Notes: generated from the letters alone by a model not told the origin. A stretch of 64,000 nt of DNA from Mycobacteriales bacterium (GCA_035690365.1 DASSKP010000034.1:9209-73208); one strand, 5' to 3'. Shown: positions 13,135 to 17,792, counted from the stretch's first letter. A program made the numbers and translations.

Positions 13135-13197
13135 GTTGAGTGCGACGAACGGGCCCCTCTCCGGGTGGGAGATAGGGGCTCGAACGTCGCACTCAAC
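13135..13197. other. 63-nt nested hairpin / inverted repeat in a divergent intergenic region
   Basis: Perfect 13-bp outer arms: GTTGAGTGCGACG (13135-13147) and CGTCGCACTCAAC (13185-13197). They enclose an inner stem of about 13 bp (13150-13162 with 13168-13182, 2-nt bulge, 5-nt loop). Confidence 0.6.
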
Positions 13198-13336
13198 AGG
13201 AGGGAGAGGGGTCCGATTTCCGCCAGTGTCGGCATCCTCGCCGGCGTGCGGACTCGTGTCTCGGCTGCTTCACGTTCGCCATCGGGCGTGCCTGACCCTG
13301 GGCGACGGGACGCAACCGCGCGGTTATCGTCGTGAG

Positions 13337-14230
13337 GTGCCAGACACTCAGTACGCCGCTGCCAACGGGCTGAAGCTCGCCTACGAGACGTTCGGTTCTC
13401 CCGACCAACCCCCGGTGCTGCTCATCATGGGCCTGGGCACGCAGATGATCGCGTGGCCGGACGAAATGTGCGAGCAGATCGCGGATCGCGGCTTCTACGT
13501 CATTCGCTACGACAACCGCGACATCGGCCTGTCGACCCATCTCGACGAGCTGCCGACGCCGTCGATGCGCGACATCCTGTTGCGCCGCAGGCCGCCGTAC
13601 AAGGTCAGTGACATGGCCGCCGACGGCGTCGCACTCATGGACGAGCTCGGCATCGACTCGGCACACGTCGTCGGTGCGTCGATGGGCGGCTTCATCGCGC
13701 AGATCATCGCCGGCAAGTACCCCAACCGTGTCCGCAGCCTGACGCTGATCATGACGTCCACCGGTTCGAGGCTGGTCGGTCATCCGCGCCCGCAGCTCAT
13801 CCGCCACCTGTTCACGCGCCGTGTCATCAACGACCGCTCCGATGCCGAGCAGGCCGTCATCGAGACGTTCGCGCTGATCGGGTCGAAGGGCTACGCGCTC
13901 GACGAGGAATACCTCCGCGATCTCGCCGGCCGCAGCTACGAGCGCTCGCTCGACCGGCGCGGCTACCTGCGCCAGCTCGCGGCCGTGATGGCGCAGCGCA
14001 ACCGCACGAAGTTCCTGCGCGACATCAGGGTGCCGACGCTGGTCATGCACGGGCTCGACGACCCGCTGGTCAACGTGAGCGGTGGTCTGGCGCTCGCGAA
14101 GCACATTCGCGGCGCGCAGTTCGTCGGCTTCAAGGGCATGGGTCACGACCTGCCGAGAGAGCTGTGGCCGCGGTTCGCCGACGAGATCTGTGCGATCGCC
14201 GCACGTGGCGAAAAGGTTCCGACGCCCTGA
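13337..14230 (+). CDS. alpha/beta hydrolase
   Basis: NGLKLAYETFG...PVLLIMGLG, nucleophile elbow VVGASMGG, and C-terminal MGHDLP. The start is uncertain (GTG 13337 or in-frame GTG 13256). Confidence 0.8.
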   Translation: MPDTQYAAANGLKLAYETFGSPDQPPVLLIMGLGTQMIAWPDEMCEQIADRGFYVIRYDNRDIGLSTHLDELPTPSMRDILLRRRPPYKVSDMAADGVALMDELGIDSAHVVGASMGGFIAQIIAGKYPNRVRSLTLIMTSTGSRLVGHPRPQLIRHLFTRRVINDRSDAEQAVIETFALIGSKGYALDEEYLRDLAGRSYERSLDRRGYLRQLAAVMAQRNRTKFLRDIRVPTLVMHGLDDPLVNVSGGLALAKHIRGAQFVGFKGMGHDLPRELWPRFADEICAIAARGEKVPTP

Positions 14231-14309
14231 CCTGAGGTCAGCCGGGGTTTCGCTCACACTGCGCGCCGGGTATGCGCGGTTTGAGTCGAATTGTTCCCCG
14301 GAGGTCGTC

Positions 14310-14936
14310 GTGACAAAGCCGTCCCGCATTTCCCGCGAAGAGCTCGCCCGCGAGAGCGCCACTGCCCTCCCGGACAAGGAAGTCCTCTCGCTGCTCGACC
14401 TCAACGCGAACCTCGACCTCGCGCTGGACGCTGCCGCACCGATCGACCTCGCCATCGGTGCCAACGCCAACATCGCCGCGCCGATCGAAGCGGCCGCGAG
14501 CGCCAACGTGCTGTCGCCGGACGCCATCTCTGCGGCGCAGGGTCAGCAGGCGACGGCCATCGACCAGACCATCACCGGCGACGCGACGGCGCACGGTCTG
14601 CAGGACAGCACGATCAACCAGGGCGCGACGACCGGCGACACGACGCAGCCGGTCGACCCGGCGACCACGAGCACCACCGGGTCGCTCACCGACGGCAACC
14701 TGCTCGACGTCAACGTCAACCTCAACGGCGACCTCAACCTGGCCGCGCCGATCGACGGCGCGGTTGCGGCCAACGCCAACGCCGCTGCGCCGATCGACGC
14801 GGCCGTGTCGGCCAACATCGACTCGCCGGGTGCGGAGTCCGTGGCCGTCGCCGACCAGACCGCTCTCATCGACCAGAGCATCACCGGCGACGCCACCGCG
14901 GTCTCCGACCAGGTGTCCAACATCGCCCAGCCGTGA
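14310..14936 (+). CDS. Cys-free Ala/Asn/Asp-rich protein with an internal duplication, unknown function (candidate protease substrate or precursor)
   Basis: GGAGG lies 5 nt before GTG 14310. The protein is 208 aa with no signal peptide and high GC3. Two units of about 78 aa each read LLD(L/V)N...AAPID...ANANxAAPI(E/D)AA(A/V)SAN...IDQ(T/S)ITGDATA. Confidence 0.75.
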   Translation: MTKPSRISREELARESATALPDKEVLSLLDLNANLDLALDAAAPIDLAIGANANIAAPIEAAASANVLSPDAISAAQGQQATAIDQTITGDATAHGLQDSTINQGATTGDTTQPVDPATTSTTGSLTDGNLLDVNVNLNGDLNLAAPIDGAVAANANAAAPIDAAVSANIDSPGAESVAVADQTALIDQSITGDATAVSDQVSNIAQP

Positions 14937-14956
14937 CGGGCGGCTAGCCGCTTCCG

Positions 14957-17278
14957 ATGACCGCCGTCGATCGGCGTACCGCCGGCGCGGACACCACGCA
15001 GAGCCTGCCGGCCGGGACGTCCCCGCAGGGGGATGTCCCGGTCCTCGTTTCCGGCACGCAGCTGCTCGGTGTCCAGCCCGGTTCGGGATACGTCACTCCT
15101 CCGCTGCTCGTCTGCCGTGCCGACGGGCAGGTCATGCACCTCACTCCGTTGCTGTACGCCGTCCTCGAAGCCGTCGACGGGGAGCGCGGTCTCGAGCAGA
15201 TCGCGCGCTTGGTCAGCGGCGTCAGTGACTACGAGCTGCACGCCGAGGACGTCGAGATGCTTGTCGAGGACAAGCTGCGTCCGCTGGGTCTTGTGCTCGG
15301 TCGCGACGGCACACATCCGCCGTTCAAGCGCACCAACCCGTTGCTGGCGCTGCGGGCGCGTTTCGTCGTCTCCAAGCCGGAGGTCACCCGCCGGATCACC
15401 GCGCCGTTCGCCGTGCTGTTCAATCCGGTCCTCGTCGTCGTCTCGACGATCGCCTTCGCTCTCGTCTCGTTCTGGGTGCTGTTCGAGAAGGGTCTCGCGT
15501 CGGCGGCGTACGACGCCTTTCGTCAGCCGGGCTTGTTGCTTGCGGTGTTCGCCATCACGGTGGTGTCGGCGGGTTTCCACGAGTTCGGGCATGCCGCCGC
15601 GTTGCGGCGCGGCGGCGGTACCCCTGGCGCGATGGGCGCCGGCCTCTACCTGATCTACCCGGCGTTCTACACCGACGTCACCGACAGCTACCGACTCGGT
15701 CGTGGCGCTCGCATCCGCACCGACCTCGGCGGGCTCTACTTCAACGCGTTGGCGGCTCTCGCGATGTTCGGCGTCTGGGCGCTGACGCGTTGGGACGGTC
15801 TGCTGCTCGTCATCGCGGCGCAGATCCTGCAGATGGTGCGGCAGCTGCCGCCGCTCGTTCGGTTCGACGGCTACCACTTGCTCGCCGACATCACCGGCGT
15901 GCCGGACTTGTTCCACCGGATCGGTCCGACCCTGCGCAGCTTCCTGCCGAAGCGTTGGCGACGACCGGAGTCACGCGAGCTCAAGCTGTGGGCTCGAATC
16001 ATCGTCACCCTCTGGACCTTGCTCGTCGTCCCGATCCTGATCCTGACGATGCTGCTGTCCGTCATCGCGTTGCCGCGCATCATCGGCACGACCATCCACT
16101 CGGTCGCGGTGCAGTGGCACCAGCTGATGCAGCAGCAGCACGCCGGTCATGCGGCCGGCGTCGGCGTCAAGATCCTCGCGATCGCCGCGCTCGTGGTGCC
16201 CGTCGGCGGCATCCTCTATCTGCTGGCGCGGATGGTGCGCAGCTACGCCGTCCGCACCTGGACCGCGACGCGAGGCAAGCCGGGAAAGCGCGCGCTCGCG
16301 GGAGTGCTGACGCTGGCCCTGCTCGGTGGCCTGGCCTACGCCTGGGCCCCACGGCCCGGTATCTACCGGCCGATCACGCCCAATGAGCACGGCACGATCC
16401 AGGACGTGCTCGGCTACTCACCACTGCACTCGCTCGTCGCCTCGCAGACCTCGCTTCGCGTCGGTGAGCAGAGCACCGCCCGAACGCTCTGGCCCGCAGG
16501 GTCGGCTCTCCCGACCAAGGGCAACCCCGCGGTCGCGCTGGTCATGACGCCCAAGCAGACCGGCAGCGGCCTGCCGACGTGGGTCTTCCCGTTCGACCGG
16601 CCGGCCCCGCCACGACCGGGTGACAACCAGGCGCTGTCGATCGTGACGACCGACGGGGGCACGGCCTACAACGTCGCCTTCGCGCTGGTGTGGGCCAACA
16701 GCGACAGCGTGGTGAACGCCAACGAGGCCTATGCGTTCGCGAGCTGCACGAAATGCGTTGCCGTCGCGATCGCGTTCCAGGTCGTGGTCGTCGTCGGTGA
16801 CGCTCATCTCGTCGCTCCGGCGAACATCTCCGAGGCGATCAACTACAACTGCATCTCCTGTGTGACCGCAGCGCTCGCCGTGCAGCTCGTGCTGCACGTG
16901 CCGGATCAGCTGAGCGACCAGGCGATGGCGCAGCTCACCAAGCTCTGGGCGCGCATCATGCGCTGGAGCAAGCACCTCAAGGGCCTGACCTTCGCCCAGA
17001 TCGAGAAGCAGATCAAGATCTTCGAAGCGCAGATCATCGCGATCGTCCAGCCGGACCTCGTGCTCGCCAACGCGTCCGCCTCGGCGTCGCCGAGTGCCGG
17101 CGTCTCTTCGACGCCGTCGCCGGGTGCGAGTGCTCTTCCCACGGACAGTCCGAGCGCGGGCACGACCAGCGACCCGAGTGCGTCGGCCTCACCGTCCCCG
17201 AGCGACACCGGTACGCCGTCCGGATCCGCGTCGCCGTCGTCCTCCGACACGTCGTCTCCGGCGCCGACGCCCAGCTGA
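14957..17278 (+). CDS. site-2-protease-like (peptidase M50) polytopic membrane protein with N-terminal PqqD/RRE-like region and C-terminal CxxC domain
   Basis: HEFGH (15578-15592) sits in a TM helix and FDGYHLL lies downstream (the second S2P metal-ligand motif). There are about 8 TM segments, two CxxC motifs (16745-16756 and 16850-16861), and a Ser/Pro-rich tail. Confidence 0.85.
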   Translation: MTAVDRRTAGADTTQSLPAGTSPQGDVPVLVSGTQLLGVQPGSGYVTPPLLVCRADGQVMHLTPLLYAVLEAVDGERGLEQIARLVSGVSDYELHAEDVEMLVEDKLRPLGLVLGRDGTHPPFKRTNPLLALRARFVVSKPEVTRRITAPFAVLFNPVLVVVSTIAFALVSFWVLFEKGLASAAYDAFRQPGLLLAVFAITVVSAGFHEFGHAAALRRGGGTPGAMGAGLYLIYPAFYTDVTDSYRLGRGARIRTDLGGLYFNALAALAMFGVWALTRWDGLLLVIAAQILQMVRQLPPLVRFDGYHLLADITGVPDLFHRIGPTLRSFLPKRWRRPESRELKLWARIIVTLWTLLVVPILILTMLLSVIALPRIIGTTIHSVAVQWHQLMQQQHAGHAAGVGVKILAIAALVVPVGGILYLLARMVRSYAVRTWTATRGKPGKRALAGVLTLALLGGLAYAWAPRPGIYRPITPNEHGTIQDVLGYSPLHSLVASQTSLRVGEQSTARTLWPAGSALPTKGNPAVALVMTPKQTGSGLPTWVFPFDRPAPPRPGDNQALSIVTTDGGTAYNVAFALVWANSDSVVNANEAYAFASCTKCVAVAIAFQVVVVVGDAHLVAPANISEAINYNCISCVTAALAVQLVLHVPDQLSDQAMAQLTKLWARIMRWSKHLKGLTFAQIEKQIKIFEAQIIAIVQPDLVLANASASASPSAGVSSTPSPGASALPTDSPSAGTTSDPSASASPSPSDTGTPSGSASPSSSDTSSPAPTPS

Positions 17279-17731: not shown

Positions 17732-17792
17732 CCGACCAGTCTCGCACAGTCAGTTGGCAAATCAAACCCTGTGGTCTATGGTCGGCGCCATG

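Follow-up and report, generated by a model that had tools for sequence, protein, structure and literature searches.

A stretch of 64,000 nucleotides from a Mycobacteriales bacterium (GCA_035690365.1 DASSKP010000034.1:9209-73208), referred to here as the window, carries on its plus strand two adjoining genes. The first encodes a protein of 208 residues (HET7310870.1; hereafter, the small protein), and the second, which begins after a spacer of 20 nt, encodes a polytopic membrane protein of 773 residues (HET7310871.1; hereafter, the protease), in which a domain resembling an RRE (the recognition element of RiPPs, peptides that are ribosomally synthesised and then modified post-translationally) precedes a site-2 protease (S2P) core. 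An initial annotation, made from the sequence, had read the pair as an undescribed two-gene module consisting of a repeat protein and an RRE-like S2P, and had considered a substrate with its own dedicated protease to be the simplest explanation. The present analysis supports this reading, with cleavage and export proposed by analogy with related systems. All the elements that the annotation had listed were recovered at the same positions: the two open reading frames (ORFs), the GTG start and its GGAGG ribosome-binding site, the short spacer, the HEFGH motif, the FDGYHLL motif (from 15863, with its Asp codon at 15866) and the two CxxC motifs, as well as the lack of Cys, signal peptide and transmembrane (TM) segment in the small protein. 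Homologues of the small protein begin at the same position as GTG 14310, which supports this start codon. The features of the two genes are collected in Table 1.

Table 1. Positions of the genes, domains and motifs of the two-gene unit in the window (aa, residue numbers within each protein; AF2, AlphaFold2; pLDDT, predicted local distance difference test; moment, hydrophobic moment)
Feature	Position	Strand	Basis or remarks
GGAGG ribosome-binding site	14300..14304	+	5 nt 5' of the GTG start; read from the sequence
Small protein gene, 208 aa	14310..14936	+	GTG 14310, stop 14934-14936; ORF and family alignments
Leader-like N-terminus, aa 1-25	14310..14384	+	motif EELAxExxTALPDKEV; conservation, K/R distribution
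Repeat 1, aa 26-104	14385..14621	+	moment 0.43 at 180 degrees, AF2 hairpin, repeat alignment
Variable T/G/P-rich linker, aa 105-127	14622..14690	+	conservation 0.34, length variable
Repeat 2, aa 128-207	14691..14930	+	same architecture as repeat 1; moment 0.52
RRE-S2P membrane protein gene, 773 aa, seven TM helices	14957..17278	+	ORF
RRE/PqqD-like winged helix (predicted), aa ~31-120	15047..15316	+	AF2 pLDDT ~90, Foldseek, NF041824 from aa 51
Site-2 (M50-like) membrane core, aa 147-464	15395..16348	+	NF041824, NF058609, RseP alignment
HEFGH, predicted zinc-binding/catalytic motif, TM2, aa 208-212	15578..15592	+	invariant in family
FDGYH, second M50 motif, Asp304 as predicted third zinc ligand	15863..15877	+	sequence, alignments
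Family-specific extracytoplasmic domain, aa 465-706	16349..17074	+	beta-rich, then helical hairpin; four invariant Cys
First CxxC, CTKC, aa 597-600	16745..16756	+	sequence; C597 and C600 invariant
Second CxxC, CISC, aa 632-635	16850..16861	+	sequence; C632 and C635 invariant
Ser/Pro/Thr/Ala-rich low-complexity tail, aa 707-773	17075..17275	+	pLDDT ~30, conservation 0.37

The small-protein family gave more than 3,800 matches at E<=1e-3, nearly all of them labelled 'hypothetical', and a scan in which each GTDB species was represented by a single genome yielded at least 541 confirmed matches, with 80 loci kept. All 80 are from Actinomycetota, and they include Mycobacterium/Mycolicibacterium, Arthrobacter, Nocardioides, Leifsonia, Blastococcus, Jatrophihabitans, Pedococcus, Planosporangium, Actinokineospora and Microthrixaceae. 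When loci were selected by the small protein, tblastn placed a homologue of the protease directly downstream on the same strand in 83 of 84, and at the sole exception (L080) a protease homologue was recognised downstream when the ORFs were read, giving 84/84. When loci were selected by the protease, a homologue of the small protein lay directly upstream in 7 of 7. The pairing proposed by the initial annotation was thus upheld from both sides; adjacency of the two genes is not due to chance, and their co-occurrence is essentially absolute in both directions. The two-gene unit is real, so far uncharacterised, and present in hundreds of actinobacterial genomes, and no description of the pair was found in the literature searched.

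To define the extent of the unit, all ORFs with high G+C content at third codon positions were clustered within 10 kb on either side of the pair at the 84 loci. The only clusters common to the loci were the two genes themselves and their antisense shadow ORFs. There was no third conserved gene, the commonest other neighbour being present at 11 of the 84 loci, nor was there a conserved tailoring enzyme or transporter in these 84 genomes. As only the pair is conserved, the alpha/beta hydrolase and HxlR genes that flank it in the window are regarded as unrelated, as had been supposed. The Ser/Thr protein kinase gene that directly precedes the pair in two related genomes (L001 and L004) is common to only 6 of the 84 loci and falls outside the conserved module.

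The relationships of the protease are clearest with two families of peptide-processing metalloproteases. NF041824, the daptide intramembrane metalloprotease, matches residues 51-378 with an E-value of 9e-27 (model positions 20-351 of 379), and NF058609, the YydH/LiaK epipeptide protease, matches with an E-value of 1e-7. Both models recognise all 43 family members scanned, with best E-values of 1e-35 and 3.5e-14, respectively. Of the two models that the initial annotation had suggested, PF02163 matches weakly in 10 of the 43 relatives (best E 7.7e-4) and PF05402 (PqqD) weakly in 4 of the 43 (0.011). The window protease shows no match to PF02163 at its gathering threshold, nor any on its isolated membrane core even at E<=10. 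ApyI gives a further weak match to the window protease (E 0.049) and to 4 of the 43 relatives (0.0017). PADLOC returned nothing for the protease, and sequence searches of the PDB, using the protease alone or profiles of both families, gave no meaningful match and no solved S2P. In JGI and KEGG, homologues of the protease carry the name 'putative peptide zinc metalloprotease protein'.

The catalytic motifs agree with this assignment. HEFGH lies within a helix (residues 191-218) of the AlphaFold2 (AF2) model and is invariant in alignments of 66 and of 43 homologues, and H208, E209, H212, D304, G305 and H307 are all invariant in the family alignments. With hhalign, HEFGH...RRGG is placed on HEFGH...RRCG of Escherichia coli RseP (HEFGH being RseP residues 22-26), and the context of the second motif, LPPLVRFDGYHLL (with D304), resembles LPVLDGGHLL of RseP (with D402). 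By these sequence comparisons, the 773-residue protein is a divergent site-2 (M50) protease, homologous to MpaP and to YydH/EpeP.

A PqqD-type RRE-like domain had been suspected in the N-terminal part of the protease, and the structural model agrees. AF2 predicts strands at residues 35-39, 50-53 and 59-62, followed by helices at 64-72, 79-89 and 96-107. The daptide model NF041824, in which an RRE is included, aligns from residue 51. In Foldseek, the N-terminal domain matches two RREs of lasso peptide systems, TbiB1 (5v1u; probability 0.96, TM-score 0.62) and 6jx3 (TM-score 0.64), both of them as sub-matches of a search with the whole protein and with E-values of 0.4-1.6; the whole protein itself matches nothing at E<=0.001. 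The N-terminal domain is thus predicted to have the RRE/PqqD winged-helix topology, three strands and then three helices. Strands beta1-3 of this domain are conserved at 0.72 and the leader-like segment of the small protein (see below) at 0.85, and this joint conservation hints that the domain may bind its cognate leader.

The AF2 model of the whole protease (mean pLDDT 69.6) has seven TM helices after the RRE domain. A re-entrant hairpin loop (residues 219-250), with a beta-hairpin at residues 226-239, lies between TM2 and TM3 and shows the highest conservation in the protein (0.90). The short loops on the inner side contain 4, 8 and 7 K+R residues vs 1, 1 and 1 on the outer side, and these counts place the N-terminus inside, the C-terminus outside and the active site facing the cytoplasm. 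Both CxxC motifs are C-terminal to the last TM helix, in a domain for which no Pfam match was obtained. When 1.8 billion representatives were searched exhaustively by HMMER with this extracytoplasmic domain, 1,233 matches were obtained, and each of the best 150 of the 1,233 looks like either a fragment or a full-length member of the same protease family; the domain is therefore specific to this family. The two CxxC motifs (residues 590-648, nt ~16725-16900) occur in similar contexts, NEAYAFASCTKCVAVAIAFQVVVVV and AINYNCISCVTAALAVQLVLHV. The arrangement suggests an internal duplication of a unit made of a Cys knuckle and a beta-strand.

The small protein (pI ~4) has no match in Pfam, NCBIfam or PADLOC, so that the family search proposed earlier succeeded for the protease, through the two NCBIfam models, and left its partner without a family. 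No hydrophobic segment was found in it. The GenBank name of HET7310870.1, 'peptidoglycan-binding protein', was rejected: neither a peptidoglycan-binding, LysM or LPXTG domain nor a model of one was found. Some Arthrobacter homologues are likewise named 'putative peptidoglycan bound protein'. Short homologues of 80-164 residues, obtained by a search with the N-terminus of a Gly/Tyr-rich variant (see below), were considered as single-repeat variants and also rejected; the 14 that were read have Arg/Pro-rich tails that look out of frame. Many of those with 110-165 residues (P0392-P0494, from ENA long contigs) have such tails, rich in Arg/Pro/Cys, after the linker, and these proteins are probably products of frameshift errors in error-prone long-read assemblies.

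Aligned with each other, the two halves of the small protein score 197, compared with 42 +/- 7 (maximum 71) for shuffled sequences. In an alignment of 85 sequences (lengths of 206-276 residues, with a uniform two-repeat architecture), mean conservation is 0.39 over residues 1-10 and rises to 0.85 over the leader-like residues 11-25, which is the level of the first, or 'A', segment of each repeat (0.85 for residues 26-69; 0.83 for residues 128-172). It is lower in the following 'B' segments (0.65 for residues 70-104; 0.68 for residues 173-207) and lowest in the linker. E11, L12, L20, P21, K23, E24 and V25 of the leader are invariant in an alignment of 81 sequences. All five K/R residues of the protein lie within its first 25 residues, and over the 85 sequences the core contains approximately 0% K, R, F, W, Y, C and M.

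Each A segment consists of about 44 residues of strict hydrophobic/polar alternation, an unbroken period of two, with L/I/A/V on one face and D/N/P/G on the other. The hydrophobic moment at 180 degrees is 0.43 for residues 26-70 and 0.52 in repeat 2, vs about 0.2 or less at helical angles. The segment can be divided into three units of 14 residues, LLDLNANLDLALDA, AAPIDLAIGANANI and AAPIEAAASANVLS. The B segments are rich in Gln (QxxxIxQxIxGDAxAxxxQxSxIxQ), and beta-hairpins are modelled by AF2 at residues 74-103 and 177-206.

At two of the protease-selected loci, the protease homologues (P0218 and P0238) are preceded by a variant small protein (L086:3026-3988 and L088:3044-3991, respectively). 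In these variants, the leader and the first A segment are kept, the middle is replaced by about 200 residues of Gly/Tyr repeats of the GGYGGTGGYGG type, and repeat 2 is reduced to a remnant (VNVVAPIDAAVAANIESP...). As the leader and first A segment are what these variants retain, this N-terminal module is the constant partner of the protease, whereas the body has the behaviour of a structural protein of low complexity. The variants also bear on the LLDLN and LLDVN motifs that open the two halves of the small protein, which the initial annotation had likened to the leader helices of class III/IV lanthipeptides. This comparison was not sustained: LLDLN/LLDVN belongs to the first of the 14-residue units that make up the amphipathic repeat, the second copy is missing from the GGY variants, and the leader-like element proper comprises residues ~8-25, is present once and contains all the basic residues. 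A class III/IV lanthipeptide system was in any case rejected, with no conserved LanKC or LanL neighbour at the 84 loci and no Cys in the core of the 85 sequences.

A broader possibility of this kind is that the small protein is a genuine RiPP precursor with several cores, in which the repeats, or fragments of them, are excised, modified by enzymes encoded elsewhere and released as small secreted peptides, LLDLN/LLDVN serving as repeated recognition helices; it corresponds to the minimal peptide maturation module that the initial annotation had also allowed. The RRE domain, the homology to RiPP leader peptidases and the duplicated unit, each copy of which opens with LLD(L/V)N, would all fit. 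However, the core lacks Cys, no conserved tailoring enzyme or transporter accompanies the pair within 10 kb on either side in 84 genomes, the GGY variants do without the second LLDVN, LLDLN is in phase with a structural sub-repeat of 14 residues, and proteins of such uniform length and two-repeat design are unlike the hypervariable cores of RiPPs. We regard this explanation as improbable.

The explanation that we favour, with a probability of roughly 0.5, is that the two genes form a self-contained operon in which an unmodified protein precursor undergoes leader-guided cleavage by a dedicated leader peptidase, possibly with export and surface assembly. According to this explanation: the small protein would be made in the cytoplasm with a leader of about 25 residues (EELAxExxTALPDKEV) that carries its only basic residues; the cytoplasmic RRE domain of the protease would bind this leader; the active site, formed by HEFGH and Asp304 near the inner face of the membrane, would cut at or near the junction between leader and core; the core thus freed would be unmodified and strongly acidic, without K/R or aromatic residues, and would consist of two amphipathic beta repeats; it might then be passed to the outside, where the Cys-containing domain and the Ser/Pro-rich tail of the protease are expected to sit; and there it might act as a self-assembling or surface-active component of the envelope. 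By analogy with the daptides, in which the leader has ...MEAP at its end, the cut would probably follow the invariant Pro21. The genes, their motifs, the predicted domain folds, the homology and the strict co-occurrence are observed; binding of the leader by the RRE and then cleavage at the cytoplasmic face would be the most likely mechanism by homology and architecture, whereas export of the core and its structural role are speculative. An extracellular fate is hinted at indirectly by the composition of the small protein, by its T/P/G- or GGY-rich linkers, by the T/S/P-rich linkers present in both proteins, and, in the protease, by the tail and the conserved extracytoplasmic domain, which the topology places outside and which has invariant Cys pairs.

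The closest precedent is found in the daptides. MpaP is described as an intramembrane site-2 protease with an RRE fused to its N-terminus, and it removes the leader (motif ELExMEAP) from MpaA (10.1101/2023.03.08.531785). The pair described here resembles MpaP/MpaA of Microbacterium paraoxydans (NF041824) in the N-terminal RRE-S2P fusion, in the position of the protease gene beside that of a leader-bearing substrate, and in its occurrence in Actinomycetota; moreover, in each of the two leaders, that of MpaA and that of the small protein, an acidic EL... motif is accompanied by a conserved Pro. There are also differences. The presumed substrate is a two-repeat protein of about 200 residues rather than a short hydrophobic peptide, and the C-terminal Thr that defines the daptides is absent from all 84 small proteins, the last residue of which is Q in 50, P in 22, G in 6, A in 4, N in 1 and H in 1. 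Neither an enzyme of the MpaB, MpaC, MpaD or MpaM type nor an ABC transporter is conserved near the pair, and no daptide-type DUF-RRE, alcohol dehydrogenase, aminotransferase or methyltransferase neighbour is conserved within 10 kb at the 84 loci. Finally, the protease extends about 390 residues beyond its NF041824 match (residues 379-773), with TM helices 5-7, the extracytoplasmic Cys domain and the tail.

The daptide comparison also bears on the possibility that the small protein is an accessory factor of the protease, i.e., an inhibitor, an adaptor or a scaffold comparable to BofA/SpoIVFA for SpoIVFB, with other membrane or secreted proteins as the real substrates. An obligate partner of this type would predict strict co-occurrence equally well, and there are known inhibitors of S2Ps that sit in the active-site cleft (PMC9042235). 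The known S2P inhibitors are membrane proteins, however, and the small protein lacks any TM segment; the combination of a protease-fused RRE with a conserved leader-like N-terminus on the neighbouring protein reproduces the substrate-enzyme architecture of the daptides; and a repetitive, low-complexity body of variable length would be atypical of a regulator. An accessory role therefore seems a slim prospect.

A second precedent, which concerns export, is provided by the epipeptides, as a review of the proteases of RiPP pathways attributes both the cleavage and the export of EpeX, as a current view, to the M50 protease EpeP, or YydH (PMC10885120). The proteases YydH/EpeP/LiaK, which act with YydF/EpeX, have a membrane metalloprotease core homologous to that of the protease studied here, and the dual function proposed for EpeP is the precedent for the export considered above. 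In contrast to the epipeptide systems, no radical-SAM epimerase or ABC transporter adjoins the pair, the presumed substrate is about four times longer (208 residues vs a precursor of about 50), and the protease possesses an RRE domain and a large C-terminal domain.

An S2P is also able to act on a protein that is not integral to the membrane, and this leads to the main alternative to leader-guided cleavage with export. In Bacillus subtilis, SpoIVFB removes a pro-sequence of about 20 N-terminal residues from Pro-sigmaK, much as is proposed here for the small protein, although there is no detectable sequence relationship between the two proteases beyond the M50 motifs, and the SpoIVFB system differs in having a CBS domain rather than an RRE, a sigma factor as substrate, and regulation by BofA/SpoIVFA. 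By extension, the S2P of the pair might trim the pro-sequence of a soluble protein at the inner face of the membrane, leaving the mature form in the cytoplasm or on the inner leaflet, while the protease is gated by its outer domain, serving as a sensor, as in regulated intramembrane proteolysis. Several observations are consistent with this notion: SpoIVFB is reported to cleave the N-terminal pro-sequence of a non-transmembrane substrate (PMC11486902); the active site of the protease is cytoplasmic by topology; there is no conserved transporter, and the small protein lacks a signal peptide and a TM segment; and the large conserved extracytoplasmic domain has the look of a sensor. On the other hand, no cytoplasmic domain, whether DNA-binding, enzymatic or of another kind, can be recognised in the core, its composition (no K/R/aromatics, T/P/G or GGY linkers, a beta periodicity of 44 residues) is more typical of extracellular structural proteins, and the RRE-S2P relatives of known role act on secreted peptides. 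Cytoplasmic release of this type is the foremost rival, and it appears rather unlikely; the multi-core precursor and the accessory factor are less likely still.

Several points nevertheless weigh against leader-guided cleavage and export. The scores of the protease fall far below the equivalog cut-off for NF041824 (94 vs 300 bits) and the cut-off for NF058609 (32 vs 225 bits), and the protein matches neither PF02163 nor PF05402 in Pfam. Throughout the family, cleavage of the leader and its binding by the RRE domain are argued from homology, and export of the core is speculative. AF2 gives only a poor model of the small protein as a monomer (pLDDT 53; effective number of sequences in the alignment, 1.9), so that the beta and amyloid-like character ascribed to this protein derives only from the periodicity of its sequence. 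The small protein has neither a signal peptide nor a TM segment, and no conserved transporter is found next to the pair at the 84 loci. We know of no S2P that translocates a polypeptide of about 19 kDa. Daptide clusters depend on co-encoded ABC transporters (10.1101/2023.03.08.531785).

Further points of this kind arise when the small protein is compared with functional-amyloid and surface-active coat proteins. Its likeness to curli CsgA, to the chaplins of Streptomyces and to SapB exists at the level of pattern only. It consists in strand-turn-strand units framed by Gln (QxxxIxQxIxGDAxAxxxQ here vs SxxxxxQxGxGNxAxxxQ in CsgA), a long amphipathic beta periodicity, a biased composition and small dedicated genes. 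Homology to curlin was not detected, as there is no Pfam Curlin_rpt or chaplin match and hhalign against E. coli CsgA gives a probability of 0.1%, and this too counts against the favoured explanation. Unlike these systems, the pair lacks a Sec signal peptide, a gene resembling CsgG or CsgB, and lanthionine chemistry. A comparison of the small-protein family with the C-terminal domain of its own protease by hhalign revealed no relationship.

A more far-reaching version of the favoured explanation can nonetheless be formulated. The pair might constitute a previously unrecognised, signal-peptide-independent pathway of secretion and assembly in Actinomycetota, in which the RRE-guided S2P removes the leader and, alone or as an oligomer, conducts the K/R-free repeat protein across the membrane, and in which the extracytoplasmic Cys domain receives or nucleates an amyloid-like or surfactant layer of the envelope. 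We consider this scheme doubtful. It would mean, just as tentatively, that the leader logic of RiPPs is applied to a whole structural protein in the absence of post-translational modification.

Some features of the DNA around the two genes should also be mentioned. The spacer (window 14934-14956) contains a perfect palindrome, GCGGCTAGCCGC, which is too short for a terminator and could possibly function in mRNA processing or in translational coupling. Antisense ORFs of up to 457 codons (13193-14527, 14543-15916 and 16418-16975, all on the minus strand) overlap both genes. These are not evidence of genes and reflect an effect typical of high-GC DNA; their counterparts in related loci recur only as shadows of the sense genes, and they are interpreted accordingly. 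In the scan, no consensus promoter was found 5' of the operon, the sole promoter-like match being downstream of it (17754-17782), and no terminator was found. There is no second copy of the module in the window, and none was found in the plasmid collection; the module is thus not obviously mobile.

To our knowledge, intramembrane proteases fused to an RRE have been described only in daptide clusters, in which they act on short, heavily modified peptides. The general type, an intramembrane leader peptidase that depends on an RRE and has its own precursor, is familiar; the novelty lies in the presumed substrate, which is a whole unmodified repeat protein, in an extracytoplasmic domain specific to the family, and in a minimal layout of two genes. 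In the unit described here, the same machinery is tied to an unmodified repeat protein of about 200 residues and of extreme composition, and it occurs as a stand-alone pair in hundreds of species of soil actinobacteria (including Arthrobacter, Nocardioides, Mycolicibacterium, Leifsonia, Blastococcus and Frankiales). The module is compact, widespread and tractable, as it comprises two genes and is found in cultivable genera. If the proposed cleavage is true, then: recognition of leaders by RREs would widen from peptides to proteins; site-2 proteases would gain a new class of substrate; and the new, family-specific extracytoplasmic domain would acquire a role. If export is true as well, the pair would represent a new route of protein secretion or surface assembly in Gram-positive bacteria.

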